From NCBI GenBank assembly GCA_965213685.1, contig CBDBZY010000003.1, positions 96,001-160,000 of the forward strand: 64,000 nt of DNA, written 5' to 3'. The DNA is from a bacterium. Its GTDB lineage: Bacteria > UBA8248. A program made the position numbers and the translations under genes. This document shows positions 32,696-53,023 of the stretch, piece by piece (within the stretch, counting starts at the first letter, position 1; every line of letters begins with the position of its first letter). A model generated the notes under the pieces. That model saw only the letters and a program-made list of their open reading frames with translations. It made no database searches and was not told the origin of the DNA.

Positions 32696-32796
32696 GCCGG
32701 AGGCGCCGGGCTTGTGTTTTTTCTGCGGTTCCCATCAACGGGTTGTCCGCCTCGTCTGATGGGACGTGATTTGGAATGACAAGAAGGACACGCCGG

Positions 32797-33786
32797 ATGT
32801 TTTCCTTTGATGGAAAATCGATTTTGGTGACCGGGGGAACGGGCTCGTTCGGCAGGAAATTCGCCGAGATATTCCTGGGGCGCTACAAGCCGAAAAAATA
32901 CATTGTCTTCAGCCGGGATGAATTGAAGCAGCATGAGATGCGCCGGCAGTTTCCGGATTCGCCCACCTCGCCCCTGCGCTATTTTATCGGGGACGTCAGG
33001 GACAAGGACAGGATGTACAGGGCCTTTCACGAGGTGGATGTTGTCGTGCACGCGGCCGCGCTGAAGCAGGTGCCCGTCTGCGAGTACAATCCTTTTGAGG
33101 CGGTGAAAACAAACATTCATGGCGCGCAGAACGTGATTGACGCCGCCATCGACAACGGCGTCGAGCGGGTGATGGCCCTCAGTACGGACAAGGCGGTGAG
33201 CCCGGCCAATTTGTATGGGGCGACGAAACTGTGCGCGGAAAAAATGTTTGTCCATGGCAACAACTATTCCGGGGGCGCCCGGACGACGAGATTCGCGTGC
33301 GTGCGCTACGGGAACGTTGTGGGCAGCAGGGGGAGCGTTCTGCCCGTTTTCAACGAGCAGCGGCGGAGCGGGAAGATCACCGTGACGGATGAACGCATGA
33401 CCCGTTTCTGGCTTACTCTGGAGCAGGGCGTGGAGTTCGTCATTCGCTGTATCTCGCAGATGGAGGGGAGCGAGGTTTTCGTTCCCAAGGTTCCGAGCAT
33501 GAGCGTCATGGAGTTGGCCGAGGTGGTCGCTCCGGATTGCGCGATTGACATTGTCGGCATCCGGCCCGGCGAGAAATTGCACGAGGTGCTCATCTCGCCG
33601 GAGGAGGCCAGATATTCCGTTGAACGCGATGCCATGTATGTGATTCGGGGCAACCCCTTTTCCCGAAGCGGGAGAGCACCCGAGGAGGGCAGCCCCCTCC
33701 CGGATGGATTCAGCTACACGAGCGATGCGAACGCGCAATGGCTCAGCAAGGAAGAGTTGAAAAAGTGGATTCGCCTGGACGGGTGA
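32797..33786 (+). CDS. pseB: UDP-N-acetylglucosamine 4,6-dehydratase (inverting)
   Basis: TGGTGSFG, SRDELKQ, HAAALKQVP..EYNP.E, STDKA, YGATK, RYGNV.GSRGSV, GIRPGEKLHE. Confidence 0.93.
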   Translation: MFSFDGKSILVTGGTGSFGRKFAEIFLGRYKPKKYIVFSRDELKQHEMRRQFPDSPTSPLRYFIGDVRDKDRMYRAFHEVDVVVHAAALKQVPVCEYNPFEAVKTNIHGAQNVIDAAIDNGVERVMALSTDKAVSPANLYGATKLCAEKMFVHGNNYSGGARTTRFACVRYGNVVGSRGSVLPVFNEQRRSGKITVTDERMTRFWLTLEQGVEFVIRCISQMEGSEVFVPKVPSMSVMELAEVVAPDCAIDIVGIRPGEKLHEVLISPEEARYSVERDAMYVIRGNPFSRSGRAPEEGSPLPDGFSYTSDANAQWLSKEELKKWIRLDG

Positions 33787-34029
33787 TCGGGCGTCGCCCG
33801 GGCACCAGCCGTTGATCTGGAAGCTACTACACCCGGATATATCCAGCGGATAGAGCCGGGGGCACTGCGTGGGCGGCGGATGACGCCTCCGTAGCACTCT
33901 GCAGCACTCTCTGGCCGGGCGGCCGCAGGAGGCGGTCCGCCCCGAGGCCGGGACGCCTTGTATTCTCGACGCCCCGGCCTTCTGTGTGTGCTCTGGTCTT
34001 TCATGATTTTCATGATTTGCTTGGAGAGG

Positions 34030-34734
34030 ATGGTGAGCCTGACCTGTCTGATACCGGCCCGCGGAGGCTCCAAAAGATTTCCTTCAAAGAACATCGCCCT
34101 GTTCAGAAACAAGCCGCTGATTGCGCATGCTATCGGGACGGCGGCCGCGTCCGGCTTGTTTGGGGAGATATGGGTTTCCACCGATGATGCGGCCATTGAG
34201 GAGGTTGCAAAAAGCGCGGGCGCGCGCATCCATGAACGCCCTCCCGAACTGGCGGATGATGCGACCACAGTCGCGCAGGTTTGTCTTGATTTTCTCGGCT
34301 GGCTGCGCGGCCAGAACAGGGAGATAGACGTTCTGTGCACCATTTTGCCGACCGCCGTCCTCCTGCAGCCGGGCGATCTTCGCGGAGGCCATGCGCTTTT
34401 TGAACGCGGAGAGTGCGATGTGGTAATGGCCGTGACGGAGTACTTCAAGCCGCCGTTTTGGGCGCTCGCCGAGGAGAACGGATTTTTGAAGCCCGCTTTC
34501 GGGCGGGAGTATTTTTTGAGAAACAGCCAGTTTTTGCCGGAAGTGTTTGCCGATAGCGGCTCATTTTATTTTGCGAGGACGGATGCGTTCGAGAGAGAGA
34601 AGATATTTTACGGGGGACGCCTGAAGGGCTACAAGATTCCGAAGACCCACGCCTTCGATATTGATGAGCCGATTCATTTGCACATCGCGGAGTCTTTGCG
34701 CGACTATCGGGAGAAGCATCCGGATGGCGGGTGA
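34030..34734 (+). CDS. CMP-nonulosonic acid synthetase (PseF/NeuA family)
   Basis: IPARGGSKR.P.KNI, VSTDD, RP.ELADD, SQ.L, D.G.FY, DIDE. Confidence 0.9.
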   Translation: MVSLTCLIPARGGSKRFPSKNIALFRNKPLIAHAIGTAAASGLFGEIWVSTDDAAIEEVAKSAGARIHERPPELADDATTVAQVCLDFLGWLRGQNREIDVLCTILPTAVLLQPGDLRGGHALFERGECDVVMAVTEYFKPPFWALAEENGFLKPAFGREYFLRNSQFLPEVFADSGSFYFARTDAFEREKIFYGGRLKGYKIPKTHAFDIDEPIHLHIAESLRDYREKHPDGG

Positions 34735-34813
34735 AGCCCTTCTCCCGTCGCTCCCGGAATGAGACGGGCGCTCCGTTTCCGTGCCGGCAACGATGCCGGC
34801 GCCCCGGAGGGGG

Positions 34814-35768
34814 GTGATTCCAGATTCAAAAGTTGCTTGTCACAGGCGCGAGTGGATTGTTGGGCGGCAATTTGGCTTGGCAAGCCTCCTGGCAGTATCG
34901 CGTATTCGGGGTGTCGCGCTCCGCTTCTGTCCGTTTTTCCCCCTGGAGCGGGGTGCAGTGCGATCTTGCGGAAAAAACATCCACCCATCGTTGTTTGAGC
35001 CGGATTGCGCCCGACGCCATCGTTCATGCTGCGGCGATGACCGATGTGGATGCGTGCGAGAAAGACCCTGGGTTGGCGATGGAGCAGAACGTGCTCGTGT
35101 CGTCAACGATTGCGGAGTGGGCGCATGCGCACAAGTCGTTTCTCCTCTACATATCTACGGATGCCGTTTTTGACGGCACAGAGGGGGGATATGCGGAGGA
35201 TGCGCACCCGAAGCCTCTGAACGCATATGCGCGCACCAAACTCATGGCCGAGGAGGCTGTACGCTCGATTTGTCCGGAGAGCTTGATCCTGAGGACAAGC
35301 CTATACGGGTGGAATTCCCGAGACAGACTCGGTTTCGGGGAATGGGTGCTGCGCGGGTTGCTGGAAAAAGAAAGAAGGACGATGTTCACGGACGTATATT
35401 TTTCGCCTCTGTATGCGGGCGATTTGGCTCGCGTGATTCTGGATTTGATACCGATGCGGGCAACGGGCGTATATCATGCGGGCGCCTCCGATGGCTGCTC
35501 GAAGTATGCGTTTGCTCATCTGTTGGCCGAGGTTTTCGGCCTGGATACAGAGCCGATAGTGCCGGTTTCCATAGAAGATGTGTCGTTGGCTGCGCAGCGG
35601 CCGAGGGATACGACCTTGCGCATCGGGAAGCTGCGGAATCTGCTGGGCCGACCCATGCCGACGATGGCCGAAGGCGTGCGGAGATTCCACGATTCTTTGC
35701 GAACGGGATTCGTGAAATCCTTGAAGGGAGAATTGCCGCCCTGGCTGGTGGGTTGCGGCGGTGGGTAG
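34814..35768 (+). CDS. RmlD-like SDR NDP-4-keto-sugar reductase
   Basis: LVTGASGLLG, HAAA.T.VD.CE, ISTD.VFDG, YARTK; probable GTG start at 34814 needs one A removed from A4 (34828-31), otherwise TTG at 34833. Confidence 0.88.
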
Positions 35769-36876
35769 GATTCTCTACGTATCGCAAGGATATTCCACGC
35801 ACGACAGGAGATTTTTGGAAGAGCTGGGCAAATCCGAACACGCCGTCTGGTTCTTGCCTTTTGCGGAGGGTGCCTATCGCCTGGAGTCTCGCCCGCTTCC
35901 CGACGGGATACAGGCGCTTCCCCCGCTACTGAAAAACAAGGAGACGCCGAGCGTTCCGGACTGGCCGGCTCTCGTTCTGCGCTTTCGAAGACGCCTGCTC
36001 GAGGCGGCACCGGATATCGTTCATGCGGGACCGGTGCAGACGGGCGCCTTCCTGGCCGCGCTTTGCAAGACAGCACCTTTGCTTGTCATGTCCTGGGGGT
36101 CGGATATTCTGGTTGTTCCGGACAAGAATCGGTGGATGCGCCGCCTGACGACGTTCACGTTGGCGCGCGCGGATATGGTTCTGGGAGATTGCGCGGCCGT
36201 CCGGGAGCGCGTGTCGTGCCTGTCTGGTTTGCGGGACGATCAGATAGTGTGTTTTCCGTGGGGGATCGACGTCCGGAAGTTTATGCCCGGGAAATCAACG
36301 ATGGGCCTGCGAAAAAGGCTGGGCTGGGAGGATCGCTTCATCGTCATTGCCACAAGGGGTTTCGAGGCGATTCACGCACCCCTCGTTTTCCTCGAGGCTA
36401 TGAAACGGGTGGTGGCCTCTCGCCCTGACGTGGGGGCGATCATGATCGGCGATGGCGGTTTGCGGTCCCGAGCGGAGGAGTTTATCGATAGGAACGATCT
36501 CGCGGGCCACGTGTATTGCCCCGGCCGGATACCGAACCCGAACATGGCCGACCATTTCCATGAGGCGGATTTGTATGTGAGCACCACGCTCAGTGACGGC
36601 ACATCGGTCAGCATGCTGGAGGCCATGGGTTGCGGTCTTCCCGTGGCCGTTGTAGATGGCTACGGGAATCGCGAATGGGTGGTGCCGGAGAAGAATGGAT
36701 GGTTGTATCCGACCGGAGACGCCGAAGCCCTGAGCCGGGTGATTCTGGACGCCTGTCCAAAAGAACCGGAACGAATGAAAATGTCGCATCGCAACAGGAT
36801 GCTCGTCGAGGAGAGGGCGGACTGGAGCAAAAATATCGGGCAACTGTTTGACATCTATGAACGTCTATCGGGTTAG
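35761..36876 (+). CDS. GT4 glycosyltransferase
   Basis: PDIVHA, WGSD, PWGID, SDGTSVSMLEAM.CGLP; GT-B layout. Confidence 0.88.
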   Translation: MGRILYVSQGYSTHDRRFLEELGKSEHAVWFLPFAEGAYRLESRPLPDGIQALPPLLKNKETPSVPDWPALVLRFRRRLLEAAPDIVHAGPVQTGAFLAALCKTAPLLVMSWGSDILVVPDKNRWMRRLTTFTLARADMVLGDCAAVRERVSCLSGLRDDQIVCFPWGIDVRKFMPGKSTMGLRKRLGWEDRFIVIATRGFEAIHAPLVFLEAMKRVVASRPDVGAIMIGDGGLRSRAEEFIDRNDLAGHVYCPGRIPNPNMADHFHEADLYVSTTLSDGTSVSMLEAMGCGLPVAVVDGYGNREWVVPEKNGWLYPTGDAEALSRVILDACPKEPERMKMSHRNRMLVEERADWSKNIGQLFDIYERLSG

Positions 36877-36894
36877 GTTGCGGGGTTCTGCGAT

Positions 36895-37974
36895 ATGCCG
36901 AATTTTCAGATCGGGGATCGGTGGATTGGCGATGCCCACCCCACGTATTTCATAGCGGATATCGCCGCCAACCATGACGGCAGCCTGGAGCGGGCGAAGC
37001 GGCTTGTTCGGCTGGCGAAGGAAGCGGGGGCCGACGCCGCCAAGTTTCAGCATTTCAGCGCACCGAAGATCGTGAGCGAATACGGGTTTGGCGCCATGCG
37101 GGGCAAGTTGTCCCACCAGGCGGGGTGGGAAAAGTCGGTGTATGAGGTGTATGAGGACGCCTCCGTCCCCTGGGAATGGACGGAGGAGCTGAAAACCTGC
37201 TGCGATGAGGCGGGCATTGATTTCTTTTCGTCTCCGTATGATTTCGGGGCGGTGGATTTTCTGGAGCCGTATGTGGATGTCTACAAAATCGGCTCAGGCG
37301 ATATCACCTGGCATGAGATGCTTCGCAAAATCGCAGGCAAGGGCAAACCCGTTATCCTGGCGACCGGCTCCTCGGACCTGGGAGACGTCCAGCGGGCGGT
37401 CCGGTGTATTCTGCAGAGCAACGGAGAATTGGCGCTTCTTCAATGCAACACGAACTACACGGGCTCGGAGGAGAATTTTCGGCACATCCACTTGAACGTG
37501 CTGCGGACGTTTCGTATGCTCTACCCCTCCGTGGTGGTCGGCCTCTCCGACCATACGCCAGCCCATGCGACAGTTTTGGGGGCGATCGCCCTGGGGGGCA
37601 GGGTCGTGGAGAAGCATTTTACGGACGATGTCAATCGAAAAGGCCCCGATCATGCGTTTTCGATGACGCCCGACGCCTGGTGCGAGATGGTCGATAGGGC
37701 ACGGGAGCTGGAGGCGGCTCTGGGGGGAACGGAAAAAGCGGTAGGCGAGAACGAGCGCGACACGGTGGTCGTGCAGAGAAGGTGCCTGCGCGCGCGGTCG
37801 GACCTGGAGGCGGGAACGATCGTCGCGCGCGAGCATATCGAGATTCTCAGGCCCGCCCCCCCGGACTCCATCGCTCCATATGATGTGGAGAAAATCATCG
37901 GGAAACGAATCAGCCGACCGATGCGGGCGGGCCAGGAGTTCACGTGGGATGTGGTGGTGGGGGCAGTGGCGTAA
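36895..37974 (+). CDS. NeuB/PseI-family nonulosonic acid synthase #1
   Basis: IADIAANHDG, GADAAKFQ, KIGSGD, GLSDHT, EKHFT, GPDH, C-terminal SAF/AFP-like domain. Confidence 0.92.
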   Translation: MPNFQIGDRWIGDAHPTYFIADIAANHDGSLERAKRLVRLAKEAGADAAKFQHFSAPKIVSEYGFGAMRGKLSHQAGWEKSVYEVYEDASVPWEWTEELKTCCDEAGIDFFSSPYDFGAVDFLEPYVDVYKIGSGDITWHEMLRKIAGKGKPVILATGSSDLGDVQRAVRCILQSNGELALLQCNTNYTGSEENFRHIHLNVLRTFRMLYPSVVVGLSDHTPAHATVLGAIALGGRVVEKHFTDDVNRKGPDHAFSMTPDAWCEMVDRARELEAALGGTEKAVGENERDTVVVQRRCLRARSDLEAGTIVAREHIEILRPAPPDSIAPYDVEKIIGKRISRPMRAGQEFTWDVVVGAVA

Positions 37975-38036
37975 TTTGCATGTAAATCACTGCGCGCACA
38001 TGGGTGGACGCGGCGCGTTTGATTGTGCGGGGACGC

Positions 38037-39923
38037 ATGAAGCAGTTAATTCTGACGGGAACGGATTCCATACAGAGTGCGCACGAAGCGGAGCATCTGG
38101 GCCCCTGGTCGCTTTCCGACGCCCAGTTTTTTCAGTGGGGATGGGAGAAGCGCGGAATCGGGCGCGCCGTCCGGCACGAGGACATTCTGCCCGTCTCGAG
38201 AAGTCTGGAGAGGGTTTGTGAATTTTATATCGCCCGCTTGAGTTGTCGGCAGAACGAGAGGCATCGCCGTTCTTACTCCAATCGGTATTGGCGCATGTTG
38301 CTGGTGTCATGGCTGCTTCGATTGGTCATGTCTTCTTTCGAGCGGTTTTTGCGAATCAGGAAGCGGATACAAGGCGGGACGCCGTATTTGGTGTATCTTG
38401 CCCCGCGGCTAGAGAGTTTCCCGTCCCTTGCGACCTCCCATTTTAATGCGCTGATGCTCGCCGATCCGCTGAACCGGCTTATTTTCAGCCGTTTTCTCCG
38501 CGCGTATCAGCCGGAGGGGTGGATCATGCGGGACGGTCCCCCTGCCGCAAGGGATGGATTCTCCCTTGGGGGGGTGCCCCGAAATGGCTCCGCACCGGAC
38601 CACCTCGCCAAATTCCGGAAGGTGCAAAGAAAGCTGGAAATGTATCAGTGGGCCAACATCCTGGCCTCCAACCTGGGATGCGTCCAGTTTCAGAGGGTAT
38701 ATGGCCTGAATCCGTTGGACAGCGTGTCCATCGCTCTCCGGATGCTGTTCCGCAACAGAAGGCGTTGGAGAAGTGCCGCAAAATCATTTCATCCAGAGTC
38801 CGGCGGAGAGAAGGAAAACATCTCGAAGGATGATGCGATGGGGGAAATCCGGTCGATTCAAGGGATAGATGCGAAAGAAGCCGGGATTTTCCTGGAGGTT
38901 GTGGACGGCCTCGTGGAGGAGACGATGCCGAAATCGTTCACGGACAATTTTCGCGAAAACGAGAAGAAGGCGTTGAGGAGGGTGAAGGCGACAGCCCCTT
39001 GGACGGACACCGTCGTCTGCGGCGGCCCCGTTTTCGGCGATGACGACCGGGAGAAGTTTTATATAGCCAGCCTGTTGGAGAGACGCCCGATAAAGCTGGC
39101 GATCAACCAGCACGGAGGAAATTACGGCCTCAGCGAGGCGACGCCGTGGCAAAGTCTCGTGGAGTATGAAACGGCGGACAGGTTCATATCATGGGGGTGG
39201 AAGCGTCAATCGGATTATCCGGTGACCGCCGTGCCGGCCTCCTCTCCCCTGCTTTCCAAAATGAAGAAAAGCCGAAAGCGCAATTCCTCCATCGTTTTGG
39301 TGGCCCCCGGCCTGCCTGCGTATTCGGGATTGCTGCATACGGAACATTTCCCTGAGGATGTTGCGCAGCATATGGCGGACAAGGCGAATTTCGTGCGTCA
39401 CCTCAACGACGCGCCGCGCTCCGTCCTGCTGTATAGACCACATATAACGAGTGCTAGCAGGCGGAACGCTGCGCTCTACATGGAGAGAAGTCTTGGCGTA
39501 GAAATTCTCCAGGGGAAATTGGTGGCACCCCTCTCGGGGCGGCTGTCCCCTGCGCTATCGCAGTGCGGGGTTTGCGTTCTGCAGTATCCGGGAACGACGG
39601 CCGCGTTCACGATGGCGGCGGGCATACCGACCGTCTTGTTCTGGGACAAGGATGTTTGGCGCTTTTCCCGGCAGGGGCGGGCCGCTCTGGAAAAACTGTC
39701 CGCGGCGAACGTCTATCACGCATCCCCGGAGAGTGCGGCGCGGCACCTGAACGCCGTCTGGCCGGATGTGGATGCGTGGTGGGAGGATGACGCGACGCAG
39801 GCAGCGGTGGGCGAATTTGCGAATCGCTACTACCGGAGCAGCAAGAACTGGCGCTCGGAGTGGGCGGACCTGCTCTCCTCGGCGGATTCGGAATTGTGGC
39901 GGGACGGGTCGGGGGCGCGCTGA
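38037..39923 (+). CDS. Putative surface-glycan transferase (LIC12162-like family)
   Basis: HLGPW, RYWR.LL..WL, QHGGNYG, DRFISWGW, YRPH, PT.LFW, SPESAA..LN.VW.DV..WW; glycan-cluster context. Confidence 0.65.
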   Translation: MKQLILTGTDSIQSAHEAEHLGPWSLSDAQFFQWGWEKRGIGRAVRHEDILPVSRSLERVCEFYIARLSCRQNERHRRSYSNRYWRMLLVSWLLRLVMSSFERFLRIRKRIQGGTPYLVYLAPRLESFPSLATSHFNALMLADPLNRLIFSRFLRAYQPEGWIMRDGPPAARDGFSLGGVPRNGSAPDHLAKFRKVQRKLEMYQWANILASNLGCVQFQRVYGLNPLDSVSIALRMLFRNRRRWRSAAKSFHPESGGEKENISKDDAMGEIRSIQGIDAKEAGIFLEVVDGLVEETMPKSFTDNFRENEKKALRRVKATAPWTDTVVCGGPVFGDDDREKFYIASLLERRPIKLAINQHGGNYGLSEATPWQSLVEYETADRFISWGWKRQSDYPVTAVPASSPLLSKMKKSRKRNSSIVLVAPGLPAYSGLLHTEHFPEDVAQHMADKANFVRHLNDAPRSVLLYRPHITSASRRNAALYMERSLGVEILQGKLVAPLSGRLSPALSQCGVCVLQYPGTTAAFTMAAGIPTVLFWDKDVWRFSRQGRAALEKLSAANVYHASPESAARHLNAVWPDVDAWWEDDATQAAVGEFANRYYRSSKNWRSEWADLLSSADSELWRDGSGAR

Positions 39924-41257
39924 TGGCCAGGGTATCGCTTGCGACAGGGCTGTTCGGCGATTTCGATGTGGCGGACGAGCAGCTGGCCGGCGTGTATGGC
40001 CCCGCCGCACCGAAGTGCGCGGGCCTGGATGACGGGGAGCTGCGGGCGCGGATTCGGAACCCGATTGGCACCCCCCCTCTGCGGAAGATGGCCGGGGGTG
40101 CGAGGAGGGTGCTGATCGTCACGGACGACAATACGCGCCATACCCCTCTGCATCGCGTGCTCCCGCCCATCCTGGAGGAACTCGCCGAGGCGGGCGTTCC
40201 GGATGCGTCCATCCGCATCCTGATCGGGTTGGGGACGCATCGCGCCATGACGGAGTCGGAGATACGGCGCAAATTCGGCGCCGATTTGGTCGCGCGGTTC
40301 CGGATTCGGAACCATGAGTGGGAAAACCCCCGGGCGCTGATTTCCCTGGGGCCCAGCGGGCTGGGCTTTGACGTGCGGATGAACAGGGAAGTTCTGGAGA
40401 CGGATTTCCTCATATCCGTCGGCAGCATCATCCCGCACGCGACCGCAGGGTTCTCCGGCGGGGCGAAGAGCGTCATGCCCGGCATTTGCGGGGAATCGAC
40501 GATAGAGGCCACCCATTGGGCGGCACTGGATTATGAGATGAGCGAGATTCTCGGCAATTTCGACAACAAGGTGCGGGAGGCGTGCGTGCGCGTCGCCCGC
40601 CAGGCCGGCGTCCGCTTTATGGTCAACACGATCATGATGGACGACGAAAGAATGTATGACGCGGTGGCGGGCGACGTGGAGTCCGCCCATCAGGTGGGAT
40701 GCGACCGGTGCCTGGAATTGTACGGGGTGCCGGTGGACGGGAAGGCGGAGGTGGTCGTGGCGGAGGCCTGGCCGTCCGACATTGATCTGCGCCAGGCCAT
40801 CAAGGCCGTCTGTTCGGCGGATGTTGTCTGCCGGGACGGGGGGGTTATCATACTGGCCGCGGATTGCCGCGAGGGCGTCTCTCCCCAGTTCCCGAACTTC
40901 GAACGCTACGGATTCCGGGACCCGGACGCCCTGTATCGCGCGGTGGAGGCGGGCGAATTTCGGGAGAAACTCCTCGCCTACACGCTGGTCGCGATTGGCA
41001 GAATCATCTCGAAGAGGGTGAAGGGCGTGCTCGTTTCTCCCCATATTCAGCGCGAGGAGGCGAACCGCATGGGGTTCGGCTGGTCCGGCTCCCTGCAGGC
41101 TGCGGTGGATGACGCCCTGGGGATGGCGGGCGCGGACGCGAAAGTGATGGCGCTTCGGCAGGCGGGGCAGATCATGCCCCTGATTCCGGGAGCTTCGAAA
41201 AAATGCGCATCTGACGATAGGCAGGAAGAACGTCCGACGAGAGGGGCAAAGAGATGA
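39923..41257 (+). CDS. larA: LarA-family nickel-pincer-dependent 2-hydroxyacid racemase/epimerase
   Basis: NPIGTPPL, DDNTR, GLGTHRAM, NHEW, PHATAGFSGGAKS..PGI, TH, QAIK, GGVIILAADC.EG. Confidence 0.88.
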   Translation: MARVSLATGLFGDFDVADEQLAGVYGPAAPKCAGLDDGELRARIRNPIGTPPLRKMAGGARRVLIVTDDNTRHTPLHRVLPPILEELAEAGVPDASIRILIGLGTHRAMTESEIRRKFGADLVARFRIRNHEWENPRALISLGPSGLGFDVRMNREVLETDFLISVGSIIPHATAGFSGGAKSVMPGICGESTIEATHWAALDYEMSEILGNFDNKVREACVRVARQAGVRFMVNTIMMDDERMYDAVAGDVESAHQVGCDRCLELYGVPVDGKAEVVVAEAWPSDIDLRQAIKAVCSADVVCRDGGVIILAADCREGVSPQFPNFERYGFRDPDALYRAVEAGEFREKLLAYTLVAIGRIISKRVKGVLVSPHIQREEANRMGFGWSGSLQAAVDDALGMAGADAKVMALRQAGQIMPLIPGASKKCASDDRQEERPTRGAKR

Positions 41258-42846
41258 TAGTCGCCGTCATACCGGCCAAACGGCACTCCAGTCGACTGGA
41301 GGACAAGAACCTCTTGGAGATCAACGGCGCCTCTCTCGTCGCCCATGCGGTGCGCTACGCGAAGAGGTTCCGGAGCATCGAGAGGATCGTCGTATCGACC
41401 GATTCGGAGGAGATTGCCGGCATTGGCAGGCGATGCGGCGCGGACGTTCATTTTCGGGGCGAGGAGCTGGCCGGCGAGGCGCCCCTCATTGAGGTGTATC
41501 GGGCCGTCGCGGACGCCCTGGGCGGGGAGGAGGTCTCTTTCGTCGTCGGGATTCAGCCCGACAATCCGACCCGGAAAAGCGACGTCGACAGCCTGCTGCG
41601 GTATGTCAGAGACAACCAGATAGACGATCTGTGCACGGTGGGCCGGGATGGAAAGCGGAACGGGGCGCTGCGCATCATGAGCAGGAGGGCCTTGACGCTG
41701 ACCCCGCCCTTGTATCCGTCTGCCGTTCAGGATGACTGCATCAACATCCATTCCGCCTTTGACCTCGCCATGTCCGCGCACGAGATGAGTCCGTATTCCA
41801 GGGAAATTTCCGTCGGAAGCAAAATGGTGGGCGCGGGCCATCCCGCCTTTCTCATCGCGGAGGCCGCCTGCAACCACATGTGCGACATGGGGCTGGCCAG
41901 GGAGATGATAGACTCGGCCGCGGAGGCCGGGGCGGACGCGATCAAGTTCCAGACCTACAAGGCGGAGCGCCTGACCCGCAAGGAGGCCACGACCTACTGG
42001 AAGGGGAAGCGGATACCGCAAATAGAGTATTATCGCGCACTGGATCGTTTTGGCGCGCCCGAGTACGAGGAACTTTTCGCCTATGCCCTGGAGCGGAATA
42101 TCGTCCCCTTCTCCACGCCGTTCGACGTCGAGAGCGCCACGATGCTGAACGATCTCGGCATGTCGCTTTTCAAGATAGCCTCGTGCGATCTGCCCGACAG
42201 CCGGTTGTTGCGGTGCGTGGCCGGTTTCGGCAAGCCCGTCATCCTTTCGACCGGCGGATCAACGGTGGAGGAGGTGGAGCGGGCCGTCTCCACGATTCTC
42301 GCCACGGGCAACCACCAGCTCATGCTCATGGCCTGCATGCTGAGCTATCCCACGACGGACGAGGACGCGAACCTCCTGCGCGTGCGCGCCTTGCGGGAGA
42401 AATATCCTGGCCTCATCATTGGCCTGTCCGATCACACGGAGCCGGACGGGCACATGGTCATCCCCGCCCTGAGCGTGGCTCTCGGCGCGAAAGTCATTGA
42501 AAAGCACTATACGCTGGATCGGGAATTGACGGGTTCGGGACACTTTTTTTCGATGAATCCGAAGGACTTGCGGAAGATGGTGGAAAACGTTCGCCTCGCG
42601 GAGACCGTCCTGGGCAGCGACGCGCTTGGGGTCGCCGAGCGCGAGCGCGCCGCCCGCGACAGCGCGCGGCGCAGCATCGTCGCCGAGCGGGACATTCAGC
42701 CCGGCGAGAGGATAGAGTCCTCCATGCTGGGCATGAAGCGGCCCGCCGACGGTCTTCCGGGCTGGATGATCGACGAGTTGATCGGCAAGGAGGCGCGGGT
42801 GCGCATCCAGGCGGACGAGGCGCTCTCCCTGGATATGGTGGAGTAG
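41254..42846 (+). CDS. Fusion of a cytidylyltransferase (NeuA-like) and NeuB-family synthase #2
   Basis: N-terminal IPAKRHSSRL.DKN, VSTD; C-terminal IAEAACNH, GADAIKFQ, KIAS, GLSDHT, EKHYT, KRP. Confidence 0.88.
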   Translation: MIVAVIPAKRHSSRLEDKNLLEINGASLVAHAVRYAKRFRSIERIVVSTDSEEIAGIGRRCGADVHFRGEELAGEAPLIEVYRAVADALGGEEVSFVVGIQPDNPTRKSDVDSLLRYVRDNQIDDLCTVGRDGKRNGALRIMSRRALTLTPPLYPSAVQDDCINIHSAFDLAMSAHEMSPYSREISVGSKMVGAGHPAFLIAEAACNHMCDMGLAREMIDSAAEAGADAIKFQTYKAERLTRKEATTYWKGKRIPQIEYYRALDRFGAPEYEELFAYALERNIVPFSTPFDVESATMLNDLGMSLFKIASCDLPDSRLLRCVAGFGKPVILSTGGSTVEEVERAVSTILATGNHQLMLMACMLSYPTTDEDANLLRVRALREKYPGLIIGLSDHTEPDGHMVIPALSVALGAKVIEKHYTLDRELTGSGHFFSMNPKDLRKMVENVRLAETVLGSDALGVAERERAARDSARRSIVAERDIQPGERIESSMLGMKRPADGLPGWMIDELIGKEARVRIQADEALSLDMVE

Positions 42847-42888
42847 CCGTGACTTTTGCGCTCCTGGCGGCGGGTGGGTGCATTCGGC

Positions 42889-44330
42889 ATGCCTAAAATC
42901 ACGGTCTACATTCCCACGTACAACTATGCGCATTTCCTGGACGCCGCGATCCGCAGCGTGTTGAACCAGACCCTGGACGATTGGGAGCTGATCGTCATTG
43001 ACGACGGCTCGACCGACAACACTCCGGAGGTCTTGGAGGCGTATCGGGACCATCCCCAAATCCGCATTCTGGAACAAGAGAACAAGGGCCTGAATTTCAC
43101 GAACAACATCGCCTTGCGCATCGCGCGGGGCGAATATCTGATGCGCCTGGACGCGGATGATTTTCTGGACGAGAACATTCTAAAGGTTCTCGCCGACGTC
43201 CTCGACGCGAAGCCGGACGTGGGCCTGGTGTTTCCGGATTATTATCGGGTGGACGAGGCCGGGGAGGTTATCGACCTCGTTCGCTGCCAGAAGATAGGGG
43301 AGGAGGTCGAGCTGCTGGACCTCCCGGCCCATGGCGCGTGCACCATGATCCGCAAGGAAGTGCTGGTCGAAATCGGGGGATATTTCGAGGAGTTCAACCG
43401 GCAGGACGGCTACGGCATGTGGCTGAAATTCATTCAGCGGCACCGCCCCTACAACGTGAACTTGCCCCTGTTTTACTATCGGCAGCATGGCGACAGCCTC
43501 TCGAAGTCGCGGAAGCTTATCCTGGAAACGCGCCGCAAGATCAAAAGGCGGGTCGTGGAGGAGATGAACCTCTATCGCCCACCCAGGGTTCTCGGGCTCG
43601 TTCCCGTCGTCGTGGACGCGGAATTCACCCTCGGGAATCCGTTCACGGAATTTCTGGGCAAACCGCTGCTGGAGCGGACGCTGGAGCAAATCCGGGAGGC
43701 GGGCACCATCGAGAGGATAGCCGTATCCTCCAACGATGCGGACGTGCTGGGGTATGTCGGCGGACTGGAGGGGGTGGACGCCATCACCCGGCCCCCGGCG
43801 TTGACGAGACGCACCTCCAGAATCTCGGACATAGCGTCCCACGCCTTGCGGACGATGGCCGGGGAGTGCGCGTATGTCCCCGCGACGCCGTTTGCATATG
43901 CCACATCAACACCCCCTTCCGGAGGGGGCGGCATATCGACAAGGCCGTGGACACCATGACCATTTTCGGCGTGGATTCGGTGATATCCATCGCCGAGGAC
44001 ACCTCTTTTTTCTACCATCACGGGAAGAACGGGCTCGTCCCCGTCAATGGTTCCCACCAGCGGACTGTGCGCCTGGAGAGAAAAGCGTTGTTCAAGGAAA
44101 ACGGGGCGATTTACCTCACCCGGTCGGATTGGATACAGGCGGGAAAATTCTTCGGAGAGAAGATAGGGCATATCACGATGCTTCCCGAGGAGAGCGTCAA
44201 GATTCGCTCGGAGTATGAATTCTGGCTGGCCGAGAAAATCGCGGCGGACTGGATGGGCATGGGGGGAGCCGACGGCTCTCCCGGCAAGAAAAATCCGCGA
44301 GGCCCGCTCCGCCAGAGCGCGAAAATCTAG
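42889..44330 (+). CDS. Fusion of a GT2 glycosyltransferase and a cytidylyltransferase-like domain (frameshift near 43880)
   Basis: IPTYN, IDDGSTD, RLDADD, YRQH; then GKPLL, VSSND, RP, TPFR, ENGAIY, ESVKI in a second frame. Confidence 0.8.
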
Positions 44331-44340
44331 GGGAAGGGCG

Positions 44341-46254
44341 GTGTTCCAACCGAAGGCGTCTAGGATAGACGTCCTTTTTTTTGAGAGCTATTCATTCTCG
44401 AAAGTCATCCTGCATGCGAAGAGCATCAGGAACGCGAAGGTTGTCCTGATTTTTCGGGACACCTACCTCGGGGATCGGCACTACGAATCCGCAAGGCAAA
44501 AATCCGTCCGCAGATTGGTGAGTTGGATCAATCCCGGGGCACAGGTGCGCGCCATTCGGATGGAGGAAGTGGCGGCGCGCCTTTTTGGCGCGAGTGCGGA
44601 GGCGGTAGAGCTGCTCGAGGCGGAAAAAGACCGCATCCGGACAACGGCGTCATACAGGCTGCTGTATGGCGTCGTGCGCAGCGAACGCATCGTCAAATTC
44701 TATCAGATGTGGCTGGTGCGGAGGCTTCCCTACAGGTATGTGGGCGCCAAGCTTTGCGAGGTGCTGAGGGAGGAAAACGAAAACGTTGTCGCCGTTTCGG
44801 ATGGGAGCATGGAGTTTTGGAGAGGTGCGCATCCGCTGTTGCGCGGCCTCGGCGATGACGGCGTTTCGGCCTGGTCGCGTTTTGTGGCGAGGGCAACGAA
44901 CATGCTCCGGGCGCATGGCTGGCGCCTGGCGTCCCTGCTCCTGCCTGGCGTCCTTTTCTTGCGGCATATCAGAAATGGCCGGGTTTCCTCCGCATCCCCG
45001 CGCTACGCATTGGCCATGCCCGTGATGCACGGCGTTTTCGATGGGGGCAAGGTGCGCACCAGGGATATCCGAACCCAGCAGGACGACGCGTATTTGTATG
45101 GCCACGGGTTTCGGCCCGGGGAGATCGTTCATGTGTTTGGCGGTTGGAAGTTCCCGCCGAAGGTCAAAAAAGAATTTGCGGGGGAAATGCGAAGGCGAGG
45201 CTACCCCTATGTGGACAAAGACGGCTATGGCGTGAATCTGGCGCTACTTCGCTTTACCTTGGCGTGCACATGGCGCATCGCAAAGAGCCTCGCGCGCGCA
45301 CCGGGTGCCAGCTGGTTGTCGGCGACGATGGAGAAAGCGACCACAAAGGCACTGTATCACTATATCCTGAAACAATACGAGATGGAGAACGTGAAGTACG
45401 ACGTCGAGCTGGTTCGGGATGAATACAACGCAGGCCACGTCCTGGAATCCATCGTTGCGAATCGAGATGGCAGAAAGAGAATTGGCGTAGTGCATTCGGG
45501 AACCATCCACAGCAAACCGGAAAACAGCTTTGTTCACCTGGACAAGCTGATGGTTCTGTGCAGGCTGCATGCGAAGACCTTCTCCCCGCATTGGAAGGGC
45601 ATGGCGTTGGAGGAAGTGGGAAGACACACCATGGATTCCCTGCTCGCGGAATCCGGGAACCGGGGAAAAATCGTCGCGGACATACACCGCCTCCATGGGA
45701 AGCGGAGGTGGGTGATCACCATTCTTCTTCCCGGAGTCGGCGCCCACAACATGCTGGAGCAATGGGACAAGCTGTTCGAGGCTTTGGTGAATTTTCAGCA
45801 CCAAAGGCTGGATTGCCACGTATTCATCCGTTTCAGACGATTCGATGATGCGAAAAGCGCCAGGCATATCAGTCGATTTTTCGACCTCCCTGAGGTAGAT
45901 TCTCGGTTCATCATCGAGCATGAGAGGTGGAACACGCACCAGTTGATGGTTGGCAGCGATCTCGTGATCACGCCGAGCTCCTCCTGGGGAATCAATGAGG
46001 CTTCCGTTGTGGGGGCCCGGGTATTTACTTTTTTGTTTATCGGCATGGAGCCTTACAATTTCAGGGACTATGGATCGGATTTCGTTCTTCGGGACGCCAA
46101 GGACGTGCTCGACGCCTTTCAGGGACTGGAGTCCGGTTTCGAGGGGTTCGATTGTGCCTGGGAGCGCTTGCGGATGGATTCGGACTACCATTTCGACGGC
46201 AAAAACACCGGGCGCATGGCAAGCGTATTGAGACGGGAGATGCAAGCCTCTTGA
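44341..46254 (+). CDS. Large uncharacterised surface-carbohydrate biosynthesis protein (GT-B-like C-terminus)
   Basis: Long ORF in the operon; C-terminal SDLVITPSSS..INEA..G resembles a GT-B nucleotide-binding helix; family not recognised. Confidence 0.55.
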   Translation: MFQPKASRIDVLFFESYSFSKVILHAKSIRNAKVVLIFRDTYLGDRHYESARQKSVRRLVSWINPGAQVRAIRMEEVAARLFGASAEAVELLEAEKDRIRTTASYRLLYGVVRSERIVKFYQMWLVRRLPYRYVGAKLCEVLREENENVVAVSDGSMEFWRGAHPLLRGLGDDGVSAWSRFVARATNMLRAHGWRLASLLLPGVLFLRHIRNGRVSSASPRYALAMPVMHGVFDGGKVRTRDIRTQQDDAYLYGHGFRPGEIVHVFGGWKFPPKVKKEFAGEMRRRGYPYVDKDGYGVNLALLRFTLACTWRIAKSLARAPGASWLSATMEKATTKALYHYILKQYEMENVKYDVELVRDEYNAGHVLESIVANRDGRKRIGVVHSGTIHSKPENSFVHLDKLMVLCRLHAKTFSPHWKGMALEEVGRHTMDSLLAESGNRGKIVADIHRLHGKRRWVITILLPGVGAHNMLEQWDKLFEALVNFQHQRLDCHVFIRFRRFDDAKSARHISRFFDLPEVDSRFIIEHERWNTHQLMVGSDLVITPSSSWGINEASVVGARVFTFLFIGMEPYNFRDYGSDFVLRDAKDVLDAFQGLESGFEGFDCAWERLRMDSDYHFDGKNTGRMASVLRREMQAS

Positions 46255-46390
46255 GCGGGTTCGGGGGCGACGTGGGCGATTGCGCGGATGCCGGCAGGCC
46301 GCATGCGCAGCGGGGCAGCGACCGGAGGCGCTTCGTTTGCCCTGTGCCGTCTGGACGTGCGGGGAATCCCCTCCTCCGGTGAAAGAACAT

Positions 46391-48154
46391 ATGCGGAACG
46401 AAAAACTGAAACATATCCTCTACCTCGCCCGGAACGACAAGGGTTTCCTGCTCTTGTATTTTCTTATCCTTGTTTTGGCGACGATGTTCGAGAGCATGGG
46501 GCTGGGCATGCTGATGCCCATATTTCAATCCATGGGAGGAGCCGAGACGAACCACTTCTTTACGGCATACGCCATGTGGGGATTCGGATTGGTGGGCCTG
46601 GAGTATTCGTTCACGAACCTCATCCTCGTCTTCTCCGCCGCAACGCTTGTCAAATACGCCCTGGTCGCGGTTTCCATGCGCTGCGCGCGGTTGATCAGCT
46701 CGAGAGCCACATACGATCTGAGGGAGAGAGCCTTTCGGAACCTCATGAATCTTCCGCTCTCGTTTTTTTACTCCCAGAAGGTGGGCGACCTTGTCGCCGT
46801 CCAGTTTACCTCTGCGAACAATGCCGGCGTGATTCTGGAATATGCGATGCTCATCATGAGCGGCATTTTTTTCTGCACCCTGTATTTGGCGATGAATTTG
46901 ATGGTGTCCTTCTGGCTGACCGTCATCGTCGTTGGCCTGTCGGCCGTCTCGTATCTTTTCCTGCTCCCGCGTTTTCAAAGCGCATATGGAGGAGGGAAGA
47001 AGGAATCGCAAGGCATGGAGAACATCAATTCCTATCTCTATGACGTCTTCTCCGGAATCAAAACGGTAAAGGTGTTCGGAAACGCCAGGCACCACGTCGA
47101 TAATTACGGACGCCACGCGGACGATTATCGTCGGGTCTGCATCCAGATCATGGACAACAGGATTATCGCGTCATTGTTTCACGAGCCGCTGTTTTTTATT
47201 TTCATGGTTCTTTGTCTGGTTCTGTCCGTTCAATTTCTGGAGCTCCCCTTCGTCACCCTTGCCGTGTTCCTCGTCATCTTCTTGCAGGTCATTCCCAAGC
47301 TGAAGGTGATATGCAACCAGTGGGTCAAGGTCAACGAACTCATCCCGCACCTGTTGCTCATCCTCGAATGCGGGGAAAGGAAGCGCAAGACGTATTTGCC
47401 GGAGGGATGCGCTCCCCTTGGCGTCCTGGAGAAGGGAGTGCGGTTTGAGGACGTCTCGTTTTCGTATCCCGGGGTGCAAAACAGCACGCTGAGCGGGATA
47501 AGCGTCTTGGTCGAGCAAGGCAAGACAACGGCCCTCGTCGGCTCCTCCGGAGGCGGGAAAACCACGCTTGTCGATCTGTTCCTGCGTCTTCACGACCCCT
47601 CGCGCGGGGTCATCTATGTGGATGACGTGGATTTGCGGGATGTTCCCCTGGCGGAATGGCGAAGTCGAATCGGGGTGGTGGAGCAGGAGCCGCATCTTTT
47701 TCACGATACGGTGTATAACAACATCCGCTATGGAAATCTCGACGCGGACGAGGGGCAAGTGCGCAAGGCCGCGGAAACCGCATGTGCCCATGCATACATA
47801 GAAAAGCTGCCGGAAGGATACGAGACGATCATCGGCAACCGGGGGTTCAGGTTGTCCGGAGGCCAAAAACAGCGTCTGGCACTCGCAAGAGCCCTGGTCC
47901 GCTCTCCCCAGATACTGGTTCTGGACGAGGCGACGAGTTCGCTCGACAGCGAGTCCGAGCATCTCATCCAGACGGCTGTGCAGGAGCTCAGCGGGCGGAT
48001 GACCATCCTGATCGTCGCCCATCGTCTTTCTACGATAAGGAATGCGGACAGGATTTTCGTTCTCGATGGCGGCCGAGTCGTTCAGGAGGGCGACCATGCG
48101 GCTCTCATCGGGGGGGAAGGCCGATACAGGGAATTCATGGAATTGCAGTCTTGA
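46391..48154 (+). CDS. ABC half-transporter (PglK/Wzk/MsbA-like glycan flippase)
   Basis: N-terminal TM domain, GSSGGGKTT, LSGGQKQR, LDEATSSLD, AHRLST. Confidence 0.9.
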   Translation: MRNEKLKHILYLARNDKGFLLLYFLILVLATMFESMGLGMLMPIFQSMGGAETNHFFTAYAMWGFGLVGLEYSFTNLILVFSAATLVKYALVAVSMRCARLISSRATYDLRERAFRNLMNLPLSFFYSQKVGDLVAVQFTSANNAGVILEYAMLIMSGIFFCTLYLAMNLMVSFWLTVIVVGLSAVSYLFLLPRFQSAYGGGKKESQGMENINSYLYDVFSGIKTVKVFGNARHHVDNYGRHADDYRRVCIQIMDNRIIASLFHEPLFFIFMVLCLVLSVQFLELPFVTLAVFLVIFLQVIPKLKVICNQWVKVNELIPHLLLILECGERKRKTYLPEGCAPLGVLEKGVRFEDVSFSYPGVQNSTLSGISVLVEQGKTTALVGSSGGGKTTLVDLFLRLHDPSRGVIYVDDVDLRDVPLAEWRSRIGVVEQEPHLFHDTVYNNIRYGNLDADEGQVRKAAETACAHAYIEKLPEGYETIIGNRGFRLSGGQKQRLALARALVRSPQILVLDEATSSLDSESEHLIQTAVQELSGRMTILIVAHRLSTIRNADRIFVLDGGRVVQEGDHAALIGGEGRYREFMELQS

Positions 48155-48248
48155 CGCGCCTCGGGAGCCGTCCGGGGCATCGAGCCGGCCTTGCATCAGG
48201 ATGGACGGGCGAGACATACGCCGATTTTGCAGATAGAGGGGTCTAGGC

Positions 48249-53022: not shown

Positions 53023-53023
53023 T

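Follow-up and report, generated by a model that had tools for sequence, protein, structure and literature searches.

To our knowledge, all characterized LarA homologues act on free hydroxyacids, and those that have been placed in pathways are either catabolic or supply D-lactate in lactobacilli. Approximately half of the LarA superfamily has no predicted function according to PMC11770544, which lists the pocket classes LAR (F,F,W,E/Q), GntE (E,V,A,H), HGR (Y,F,H/Q,T), and MAR (x,x,H/Q,K). Residues that serve the cofactor, ligate the nickel, and bind the substrate carboxylate are described in PMC11770544 and PMC11851776, and the latter reports for Isosphaera pallida LarA that Tyr294 hydrogen bonds the 2-OH and is required to keep the cofactor bound. 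In our literature search, no paper connected LarA with NeuB or presented LarA as a glycan tailoring enzyme.

We analyzed a 64-kb stretch of bacterial DNA (hereafter, the window) in which a gene for a LarA homologue lies inside a glycan cluster with the following features:

32776..37974, plus strand: five-gene insertion (PseB, PseF-like cytidylyltransferase, RmlD-like reductase, GT4, and NeuB #1), by profile matches
38004..39923, plus strand: LIC12162-family transferase, a candidate ulosonic-acid transferase (TIGR04331, 272.1 bits, cut-off 225)
39923..41257, plus strand: LarA-family (nickel-pincer nucleotide) 2-hydroxyacid epimerase/racemase homologue; 444 aa, intact, with Lar_N and LarA_C
41254..42846, plus strand: CT-NeuB fusion (NeuB #2); 530 aa, with CTP_transf_3 (3-127), NeuB (218-455), and SAF (472-530)
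42856..44330, plus strand: GT2 glycosyltransferase (GT2 at 16-172) with a C-terminal CMP-NeuAc-synthetase-like domain, split by a frameshift
44215..55519, mixed strands: remainder of the glycan cluster, by Pfam matches (GC 56-64% vs. 63-72% around it)
within 44215..55519: 679-aa protein without a family
46280-48154: ABC exporter (Pfam)
48249-50207: Wzz-like protein (Pfam)
50311-51807: Wzy_C protein (Pfam)
51772-53022, minus strand: GT4 (Pfam)
53024-55519, minus strand: asparagine synthase-type amidotransferase (Pfam)

The larA gene occupies an ORF (39860-41257) that holds an internal ATG at 39923, and we placed the start there because relatives align from this methionine (MARVSL/MARISL). A sequence-only reading of this DNA had claimed an intact LarA-family gene that overlaps both of its neighbors, and the frame, start, and stop coordinates agree: the larA ATG shares the TGA (39921-39923) of the LIC12162 ORF in a TGATG, and its stop codon (41255-41257) overlaps the ATG of the CT-NeuB fusion at 41254 in an ATGA. 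Lar_N (PF09861, 186.3 bits, residues 14-202) and LarA_C (PF21113, 37.2 bits, residues 276-411) both scored above their cut-offs, and a profile search of the genome returned this LarA as the sole Lar_N match. The protein nevertheless fell under every LarA equivalog cut-off in NCBIfam. Its best profile match was to malate racemase (NF052593, MAR LarAH6; 292 bits, cut-off 500), with lower scores against lactate racemase (NF033504; 271.3 bits, cut-off 460), LarAH10 (257.6 bits, cut-off 540), the LarAH5 malate racemase (NF052595; 221.8 bits, cut-off 462), and the GntE or D-gluconate 2-epimerase type (NF052594; 72.9 bits, cut-off 500). The closest solved structure was Mar2 (PDB 6D6Z, E 2.3e-53), and the Lactiplantibacillus plantarum LarA structures 5huq/6c1w matched at E 6.6e-52. 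A search of a protein-cluster atlas with LarA returned generic LarA clusters only. We also looked for fused forms of LarA: the best 150 of 8483 profile hits were 188-445 aa long, and a search for longer proteins with the first 270 residues turned up just two, of 500 aa, in which Lar_N was the sole domain. Among the 150 matches listed for 301 genomes of one archaeal phylum, a single frame (873 aa, G257:C3) was longer than 502 aa, and the frames of five weaker archaeal matches measured 385-502 aa. Relatives of the protein are annotated in the sources as "nickel-dependent lactate racemase."

Pfam bears out the earlier identification of the downstream partner as a CT-NeuB fusion. The CT part is a cytidylyltransferase domain of the KdsB/NeuA type, short at ~180 aa, and the NeuB part a NeuB-type PEP-condensing ulosonic acid synthase (PF03102, 243.2 bits), and the SDH, EKH, and KFQTY motifs, which we take to be the metal and PEP sites, are invariant in the alignment of CT-NeuB orthologues. 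NeuB #2 scored below the cut-offs of both NeuB_NnaB (TIGR03569; 290.3 bits, cut-off 399.65) and PseI (TIGR03586; 259.2 bits, cut-off 340.25), and by these profiles it classes as a NeuB-family enzyme without a defined sugar specificity. A predicted complex of LarA with CT-NeuB scored 0.01 (mark 0.32), a value that counts neither for nor against pairing. Full-length orthologues of the GT2 fusion are 453-468 aa long, with residues 254-451 matching positions 25-224 of chain 1eyr; this CT-like domain lacks a P-loop. In the window this gene is frameshifted near 43884-43935, at C5/G6 homopolymer runs, and tblastn followed frame 1 for the N part, as far as 43935, and frame 3 for the C part, between 43884 and ~44255; it is one of three genes in the window, apart from the intact larA, that carry frameshifts. 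The other two frameshift sites are at 29500-29534 and 30716-30780, and all three may be assembly errors.

The LIC12162 transferase had no match in the Pfam search. Its family adjoins neuABC in a Herbaspirillum island described in PMC6679464, and its orthologues (54-58% identity) occurred at loci L008-L021 only, so that it adjoins LarA only in this lineage. Further upstream, PseB exceeded its cut-off (TIGR03589; 477.4 bits vs. 407.75), PseF (182 bits vs. 205.7) and RmlD (217.8 bits vs. 224.05) did not, and NeuB #1 matched the NeuB Pfam at 237.4. At the related loci L009-L018, an EamA gene is followed directly by LIC12162, without the PseB-to-NeuB #1 block, and we conclude that this block, the nonulosonic-acid operon upstream of larA, was inserted in this genome alone and lies outside the conserved module; orthologues of the ABC, AsnB, and Wzy_C genes are found downstream of the module at L009-L020.

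Our survey took in 30 genome loci whose LarA is at least 44% identical to this one and 22 loci whose LarA is at most 41% identical. A CT-NeuB orthologue was present in the same cluster at 28 of the 30 loci, and the other two (L021 and L042) are contigs cut inside LarA. Within the fetched flanks, CT-NeuB (44-79% identity) was found at 27/30 loci and GT2 (47-75% identity) at 28/30. Locus L008 was rejected as an exception to the linkage, as its CT-NeuB (81% identity) sits on the same chromosome 8.4 kb farther on, beyond the fetched flank; CT-NeuB orthologues (44-81%) therefore adjoin every checkable LarA of the module clade. No CT-NeuB or GT2 orthologue was found beside the more distant LarAs (0/22 loci). 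The module LarAs span at least seven named phyla (Nitrospinota-like, Planctomycetota, Omnitrophota, Verrucomicrobiota, Thermodesulfobacteriota, Myxococcota, and Bacteroidota), and the juxtaposition of larA and neuB is evidently not a one-off. In all-against-all clustering of the neighbors, only LarA, GT2, and NeuB were common to 12-13 clades. When we searched the neighbors for a gene that could consistently supply the aldose or a second carboxylate, the only recurrent families were methyltransferases (10/83 ORFs), B12-radical-SAM (5), and scattered genes of the Pse/Leg type (Polysacc_synt_2, 3; Epimerase_2, 3; DegT, 2), and no family proved universal. The 25 commonest neighbor families of the module included no dehydrogenase making a second carboxylate, the neighbor clustering revealed no hydroxyacid-activating ligase or acyltransferase gene conserved with the module, and the module itself encodes no route to a 2-hydroxyacid sugar precursor.

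The reverse survey, in which 80 metagenome loci were fetched with a CT-NeuB profile, contained 15 loci with a NeuB at least 48% identical. LarA was present at four of these (L065, L067, L071, and L072; L071 is nearly identical to L025), and none was found at seven well-flanked NeuB loci (L066, L068, L070, L073, L074, L077, and L078), indicating that LarA is dispensable for the NeuB pathway. Many related NeuB genes have a B12-radical-SAM gene as neighbor in place of LarA. Since the reverse link is partial, LarA appears to be an optional tailoring or supply enzyme.

To compare residues, we aligned the protein with L. plantarum LarA (5huq/6c1w) and with 54 homologues (55 rows in all). D68, R72, H106, H172, K182, H198, Q291, and K294 correspond to D72, R75, H108, H174, K184, H200, Q295, and K298 of L. 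plantarum LarA. The catalytic histidine pair (H106 and H172) is invariant in 55/55 rows, and by alignment K182 takes the place of the cofactor-tethering Lys184, H198 that of the Ni-ligand His200, and R72, Q291, and K294 those of the carboxylate-binding Arg75, Gln295, and Lys298. All conserved positions were thus found, as the sequence-only reading had proposed, and both of the replacements on which it had set this pocket apart from that of lactate racemase (HAT for HFF and RQAIK for YQAVK) were seen. The protein has PHATAGFSGGAK where L. plantarum LarA has SHFFAGFSGGRK, placing A173/T174 at the Phe-Phe positions, and LRQAIKA where L. plantarum LarA has IYQAVKG, placing Arg290, invariant in the subfamily, at the position of Tyr294; other LarA clades in the alignment mostly have Trp there, so this position varies across the superfamily. 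Y353 and T354 occupy the W358/T359 positions. The full signature A,T / R / Y,T at F175, F176, Y294, W358, and T359 was present in 34/34 module LarAs, and all five residues together were found in 0/21 of the others. The pocket A,T,Y,T, with Arg for Tyr294, matches none of the characterized classes. We rejected a plain lactate racemase (271.3 of 460 bits; not F,F,W,E/Q) and a plain malate racemase (292 of 500 bits; no H/Q and K at W358/T359), and the E,V,A,H of a GntE-type D-gluconate 2-epimerase was likewise not found (72.9 of 500 bits).

In the LarA tree, the 24 module LarA rows fell on one side of a single branch (SH-aLRT 98; 0/500 shuffles as low). On this sequence evidence, the module LarAs form a distinct monophyletic subfamily, a group that may already sit unassigned among the numbered LarAH groups of Desguin 2020 and Urdiain-Arraiza 2025. 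A neighboring clade within the next larger group (L036, L037, and L040; 37-39% identity) has the GntE-like pocket R,V,A,H. L036 lies in an operon of TRAP transporter, SDR, SDR, LarA, FGGY kinase, and 2-hydroxyacid dehydrogenase genes, and the ORF layout is the same at L037 and L040. The sister row L039, a single long branch (1.34), has the pocket G,T/R/Y,T and adjoins fumarase and aconitase-type genes.

No larB, larC, or larE and no NeuC-type epimerase had been noticed in the window, and both absences were confirmed. The cofactor genes that the earlier reading had marked for checking in the genome are present, all above cut-off, on a different contig (C29) from that of larA:

C29:25479-26255: larE (TIGR00268, 339.8 bits, cut-off 150)
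C29:26417-27040: larB (NF033503, 288.3 bits, cut-off 175)
C29:27064-28269: larC (PF01969, 463.8 bits)

No second client of the cofactor was found among the neighbors of larEBC on C29. LarC was present in 8/10 other module genomes; one module genome of uncertain completeness, G002, showed neither LarC nor LarB. Epimerase_2 (NeuC/WecB type) had no match anywhere in the 94%-complete genome analyzed here.

The locus thus combines an intact LarA gene, retained residues, conserved linkage, membership in one clade, and larE-larB-larC in the genome. A biosynthetic, glycan-linked role for this LarA homologue is strongly supported by sequence comparison, through the cross-phylum linkage, the single clade with its private pocket, the cofactor genes, and the exclusion of a plain lactate racemase. 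The glycan link of the undescribed biosynthetic role posited earlier is upheld in this way, but neither of the two forms given to that role, supply of a hydroxyacyl group or epimerization of a sugar acid, is singled out.

We tentatively favor the possibility that the LarA subfamily is a dedicated, optional accessory of a conserved three-gene ulosonic-acid module and epimerizes a sugar-type acid intermediate. The module would consist of the fusion of a short cytidylyltransferase to NeuB, the fusion of GT2 to a CMP-sugar-synthetase-like domain, and LarA. The nickel-pincer nucleotide would be carried on K182 with H198 as Ni ligand, the free carboxylate of the substrate would be held by R72, Q291, and K294, and inversion at the neighboring C-OH carbon would proceed by passing a hydride to the cofactor, H106 and H172 serving as acid and base. 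Under this proposal the substrate is most likely a polyhydroxylated sugar-type acid that is an intermediate of the same ulosonic-acid pathway, for example, a compound that carries a uronic-type carboxylate and is either a precursor or the product of NeuB #2. The CMP-activated sugar acid made by LarA-bearing clusters would be an epimeric variant, which the GT2 fusion would pass to the glycan. Linkage across phyla with only three shared families, one clade with a private pocket, and the presence of larE-larB-larC in a genome in which this LarA is the sole Lar_N gene all favor epimerization of a sugar acid, as do a possible sugar-acid ancestry from the GntE-like L036/L037/L040 clade and apparent translational coupling on both sides of larA. 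Against it stand the partial reverse association (LarA at 4/15 NeuB loci), the lack of a conserved dehydrogenase for the second carboxylate, the replacement of Tyr294 by Arg, the absence of LarC and LarB from G002, and the frameshift of the GT2 fusion in the window. A normal 2-keto-3-deoxy acid has no hydrogen on C2, and for this reason the NeuB product is not a canonical LarA substrate and a uronic-type carboxylate is invoked.

The neighbors of L039 and the malate racemase best matches would point rather to a small hydroxy-dicarboxylate, and a somewhat unlikely alternative is that LarA racemizes some small 2-hydroxy(di)acid in its free form (malate, tartrate, glycerate, or lactate type), whose enantiomer would serve as a glycan substituent or aglycone (for instance, as acceptor of the GT2 fusion). 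LarA would then be unneeded in organisms that already make that enantiomer, and its dispensability for related NeuB modules is what one expects of a supply enzyme. This chemistry is canonical and requires no unusual substrate, LarAH6 (292 bits) and Mar2 (E 2.3e-53) are the best profile and solved relative, the invariant extra Arg290 could hold a second carboxylate, and L039, with its near-identical pocket, adjoins fumarase and aconitase-family genes. However, the only genes conserved with LarA are NeuB and GT2, with no acid-activating ligase or acyltransferase among them; the MAR signature (H/Q and K) is replaced by Y,T at 292 of 500 bits; L039 is a single long-branch row; and a supplier of a common metabolite would be expected to show a looser tie than this strict, cross-phylum one to a single NeuB/GT2 pair.

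We consider it improbable that LarA instead performs a non-canonical redox reaction on the ulosonic acid itself, with the C1 carboxylate in the usual site and hydride taken from another carbinol such as C4 to give an epimer or keto-isomer. Within the module, the available substrate is indeed a 2-keto-3-deoxy acid whose carboxylate is free, replacement of Phe-Phe by A173/T174 would open the pocket, and PMC12611868 describes LarA relatives that have non-canonical active sites and bind a nine-carbon sugar phosphate. Both histidines and the full carboxylate triad are canonical here, though, which would place C2 rather than C4 over the cofactor, and the proposal is without precedent among two-histidine LarAs and comes from inference alone. 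Least probable by far is that the gene encodes an ordinary lactate/malate racemase, catabolic or housekeeping, that happens to lie inside the cluster, or that it is a non-functional remnant. The annotation of relatives and the frameshifts in three other window genes speak for it, but the linkage holds at 28/30 loci across phyla with cut contigs at the other two, the frame is intact with overlaps at both start and stop, and the pocket is neither LAR nor MAR, with every equivalog cut-off missed.

If this subfamily is indeed tied to the NeuB/cytidylyltransferase/GT2 module, nickel-pincer chemistry would gain a role in building cell-surface sugars, the LarA family would gain a new substrate class, and a sialic-acid-like sugar, not yet known, would be predicted in several mostly uncultured phyla. 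The three-gene system offers a concrete, testable case for glycobiology and enzyme discovery. It is conceivable, a shade more tentatively, that this is the first LarA-type enzyme in nucleotide-sugar/surface-glycan biosynthesis and that, with the short-CT-NeuB and the GT2-CT-like transferase, it makes an undescribed CMP-activated sugar acid (an epimeric ulosonic acid, or an "ulosaric" acid with a second carboxylate) in the seven phyla listed above, the B12-radical-SAM enzyme being an alternative tailoring activity in sister clusters.

Like the LarA proteins of L. plantarum (5HUQ/6C1W) and I. pallida (9EIA/9EID), the homologue described here combines Lar_N/LarA_C with the His pair, the Lys, the Ni-ligand His, and the Arg/Gln/Lys set, and the larB, larC, and larE genes that those enzymes need are all in the genome. 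It differs from lactate racemase LarA in its pocket (A,T,Y,T vs. F,F,W,T/E/Q, with Arg for Tyr294) and in its setting, which is glycan synthesis and not lactate metabolism. The malate racemase Mar2/LarAH6 and the broad-spectrum racemase family LarAH10 supply the best solved relative and the best NCBIfam profiles (292 and 257.6 bits), but these scores are far under the cut-offs of 500 and 540, and the malate-racemase H/Q and K pair is absent. D-Gluconate 2-epimerases (GntE-type LarAHs) act on sugar acids, and the L036-type clade shares a GntE-like pocket (R,V,A,H); the module LarA is only 37-39% identical to that clade, has a different pocket, and lies in a biosynthetic rather than a catabolic setting. 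As in the NeuC/NeuB/NeuA, PseB-I, and Leg pathways, a NeuB-type synthase and a CMP-activating enzyme occur together in a surface-glycan cluster. In contrast to those canonical nonulosonic-acid pathways, the genome has no hydrolyzing 2-epimerase and NeuB #2 is under the NeuB and PseI equivalog cut-offs. EpaA and EpaB are reported to 8-epimerize pseudaminic acid, giving stereo-variants via added tailoring enzymes as we propose here, where the tailoring enzyme would be a nickel-pincer LarA.

The window's homologue of lactate-racemase-type enzymes (LarA) runs on the plus strand from an ATG at 39923 to a TGA at 41257. The TGA of the upstream gene (38004-39923) overlaps this ATG by one base, the ATG of the downstream gene at 41254 overlaps the LarA stop, and 20 relatives align from the same Met, which fixes the start at 39923; the intact gene overlapping both neighbors that had been claimed in the sequence-only reading was thus borne out. 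The protein matched Pfam Lar_N (186.3 bits) and LarA_C (37.2 bits), and the gene is the only one with Lar_N in the host genome (7.97 Mb, 71 contigs, 94% complete). Every NCBIfam LarA score was far under its cut-off, the nearest being malate racemase LarAH6 (292 bits vs. 500), with lactate racemase at 271.3 vs. 460 and LarAH10 at 257.6 vs. 540. The best solved-structure matches were Mar2 (6D6Z, E 2.3e-53) and Lactiplantibacillus plantarum LarA (5HUQ/6C1W, E about 6.5e-52). Our searches for LarA fused to a cytidylyltransferase, which covered the best 150 of 8483 profile hits (188-445 aa) and 150 listed matches for 301 genomes of one archaeal phylum, yielded no confirmed case. We also observed a Lar_N match (C3:32735-33325) in an 873-aa open frame of an archaeal genome (G257), which may be a fused form of LarA.

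The gene lies in a plus-strand array within a stretch of lower G+C (56-64%, from about 32.7 to 52 kb) in a window of otherwise 63-72% G+C.

Genes of the cluster, in order
32776-37974, plus: PseB (equivalog score 477 over 408), PseF-like cytidylyltransferase, RmlD-like reductase, GT4 and NeuB #1
38004-39923, plus: LIC12162-family transferase
39923-41257, plus: LarA homologue
41254-42846, plus: cytidylyltransferase-NeuB fusion (CT-NeuB; NeuB #2)
42856-44330, plus: GT2-CMP-NeuAc-synthetase-like fusion (L009:10925-12322 and orthologues in other loci)
thereafter: 679-aa protein without a family, ABC exporter, Wzz-like protein, Wzy_C, GT4, asparagine-synthase-type amidotransferase

Upstream of the array, the genes for a phosphonate-type binding protein, ABC ATPase, permease, AMP-binding enzyme, M20 peptidase and EamA protein are syntenic, at 73-86% amino-acid identity, with homologous loci L008-L018 from other genomes (L008 without an EamA match), which places those genomes in the window's own lineage. 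Since EamA is followed directly by LIC12162-LarA-CT-NeuB-GT2 in L009-L018, the PseB-to-NeuB #1 block is an insertion private to the window's genome and lies outside the conserved module. No aminotransferase, acetyltransferase or PseG-type hydrolase was found beside this insertion (32776-37974), so the product of the five-gene block is probably not pseudaminic acid proper. Of the host genome's three NeuB-family matches, two are inside the window. The claimed lack of a NeuC-type epimerase held genome-wide: the search for Epimerase_2 (NeuC/WecB-type UDP-GlcNAc 2-epimerase) was blank in the 94%-complete host genome and positive in 11 of 14 control genomes.

To determine how widely LarA is linked to these partners, we used a profile built from the 20 relatives to collect 52 loci from one-genome-per-species contigs and searched them by tblastn with the proteins of the window's cluster. 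LarA was at least 44% identical to the window's in 30 loci, of which 27 carried a CT-NeuB orthologue (44-79% identity) and 28 a GT2 orthologue (47-75% identity). The three loci without a CT-NeuB match were L021, where the contig ends inside LarA, L042, where it starts inside LarA, and L008, where the chromosome does carry a CT-NeuB of 81% identity, 8.4 kb away from LarA and just past the fetched flank. The same tblastn search found neither partner in any of the 22 loci with a LarA of 31-41% identity. The association is therefore no one-off. Carriers are titled Nitrospinota, Bacteroidota (Cytophagia), Verrucomicrobiota, Myxococcota/'Deltaproteobacteria', Desulfobacterales, Omnitrophota, Zymogenus and, within Planctomycetota, an anammox genus, Pirellulales and Planctomycetia. 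When every ORF of the loci was clustered all against all, the only families common to 12-13 clades were LarA, GT2 and NeuB. In a quick maximum-likelihood tree of 45 rows with a midpoint root, from which ten near-duplicate rows (L010, 11, 13-16, 18-21) were left out, all 24 module rows fell on one side of a branch with SH-aLRT 98, and none of 500 label shuffles gave as low a value. Two of the clusters with the module contain sulfotransferase genes (L023:12506-13507 and L024:6885-7928), and SAM methyltransferases make up 10 of 83 neighbor ORFs, suggesting heavily decorated glycans.

In the full-length GT2 partner (453-468 aa), a GT2 domain containing DDGS and DxDD motifs precedes a second domain matching CMP-NeuAc synthetase positions 25-224, which presumably lacks the Arg/Lys-rich N-terminal, phosphate-binding loop. 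The cytidylyltransferase part of CT-NeuB (~180 aa) extends over no more than positions 1-123 of the 217-position profile, a short N-terminal half that keeps the 'IPAK..S.RL..KN' loop. The two domains may be complementary; alternatively, CMP-sugar binding may be the task of the GT2 fusion. In the window, the GT2 fusion gene carries a frameshift at 43884-43935, next to runs of C5 and G6. The AMP-binding (28621-30208) and M20 peptidase (30326-31589) genes are frameshifted as well; orthologues of all three are in one frame in relatives. Three frameshifts in 16 kb suggest assembly indel errors, or else recent pseudogenes.

We also carried out the reverse search, with a CT-NeuB profile against metagenome contigs, which gave 80 loci. 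NeuB was at least 48% identical in 15, with LarA adjacent in four (L065, L067, L071 and L072, L071 being almost identical to L025). LarA was absent from seven well-flanked loci of this group and from all 65 loci with NeuB at most 47% identical. In the LarA-less loci, a B12-binding radical SAM gene was directly beside NeuB in 8 of 8 tested, namely the seven and L080.

B12-binding radical SAM genes beside NeuB in LarA-less loci
L066:4392-5999
L068:7600-9003
L070:7569-8984
L073:4697-5947
L074:7068-8486
L077:4884-6242
L078:6993-8402
L080:4508-5881

Genes of like kind also occur in the LarA-bearing loci L025 and L031. With the B12-binding radical SAM protein, the ulosonic-acid module family has a putative second tailoring enzyme. 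A LarA of the module clade thus predicts the NeuB/GT2 pair, but not the other way round, and LarA behaves like an optional enzyme, for tailoring or supply, within a broader family of uncharacterized ulosonic-acid modules. As for the nickel-pincer cofactor, a larE-larB-larC cluster, each gene over its curated cut-off, is present on contig C29 of the host genome, answering the check for larBCE. A search for LarC was positive in 8 of 10 further genomes that carry the module; among the remaining two (completeness not given), G005 has LarB but no LarC and G002 has neither.

Alignments to solved structures showed that D72, R75, H108, H174, K184, H200, Q295 and K298 of LarA are all conserved in the window's protein, while Phe175-Phe176 are replaced by Ala-Thr and Tyr294 by Arg, exactly the retained catalytic residues and altered pocket read from the sequence alone. 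At the positions of F175, F176, Y294, W358 and T359, all 34 module LarAs have A,T/R/Y,T, and none of 21 other LarAs has all five residues together. Two LarAs from elsewhere were observed alongside. That of L039 (5941-7245) differs only slightly in its pocket (G,T/R/Y,T) and is without NeuB; its neighbors are a class II fumarase, large and small aconitase-family subunits, an enolase-superfamily protein and a polysaccharide deacetylase. That of L036 belongs to a clade of Bacillota LarAs with an R,V,A,H pocket. Its operon (L036:3160-11811) also encodes a DctPQM TRAP transporter, two SDRs, an FGGY kinase and a D-2-hydroxyacid dehydrogenase; the ORFs of L037 and L040 are laid out similarly, and this type of operon looks like an uncharacterized hexonate-type epimerase pathway.

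By the established LarA mechanism, as set out in PMC11851776, R72, Q291 and K294 of the window's enzyme would hold the substrate carboxylate, the cofactor would take up a hydride from the alpha carbon, and H106 and H172 would shuttle the proton. Since the NeuB product has no hydrogen on C2, the enzyme would have to use another alpha-hydroxy-carboxylate. Ranked first, though tentatively and at somewhat under an even chance, is an acid of sugar type belonging to the pathway, for example a uronic-type end of the NeuB substrate or product; the gluconate-epimerase-like pocket of the neighboring LarA clade of L036, with its TRAP-SDR-SDR-LarA-FGGY kinase-dehydrogenase operon there, the opened and polar pocket of the window's LarA and the strict linkage to the module all argue for it. 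That LarA instead supplies a small hydroxy(di)acid for incorporation is ranked second and seems rather unlikely. In its favor, malate racemases gave the best matches among both profiles and structures, a second carboxylate could be bound by the extra Arg, and the single sister row, L039, is beside fumarase and aconitase-family genes, but that row sits on a long branch (1.34). Non-canonical hydride chemistry on the ulosonic acid, ranked third, strikes us as improbable. The biosynthetic role proposed in the sequence-only reading is thus supported in general outline.

Full-text searches gave us no paper that connects LarA, lactate racemase, DUF2088 or nickel-pincer with NeuB, nonulosonic acids or polysaccharide synthesis. 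The accessible main text of the LarA superfamily surveys has no sialic, neuraminate, polysaccharide, glycosyltransferase, cytidylyl or uronate, and their supplements may list the group; the accessible part of a genome paper (PMC8397731) mentions LarA and sialic acid separately, unlinked. The module LarA is a known kind of enzyme in a setting that we did not find described. According to Urdiain-Arraiza et al. (PMC11770544), four of the five pocket positions separate LarA classes: lactate racemases have F,F,W,E/Q, gluconate epimerases E,V,A,H, 2-hydroxyglutarate racemases Y,F,H/Q,T and malate racemases x,x,H/Q,K. The signature of the module LarAs is distinct from all four of these classes.
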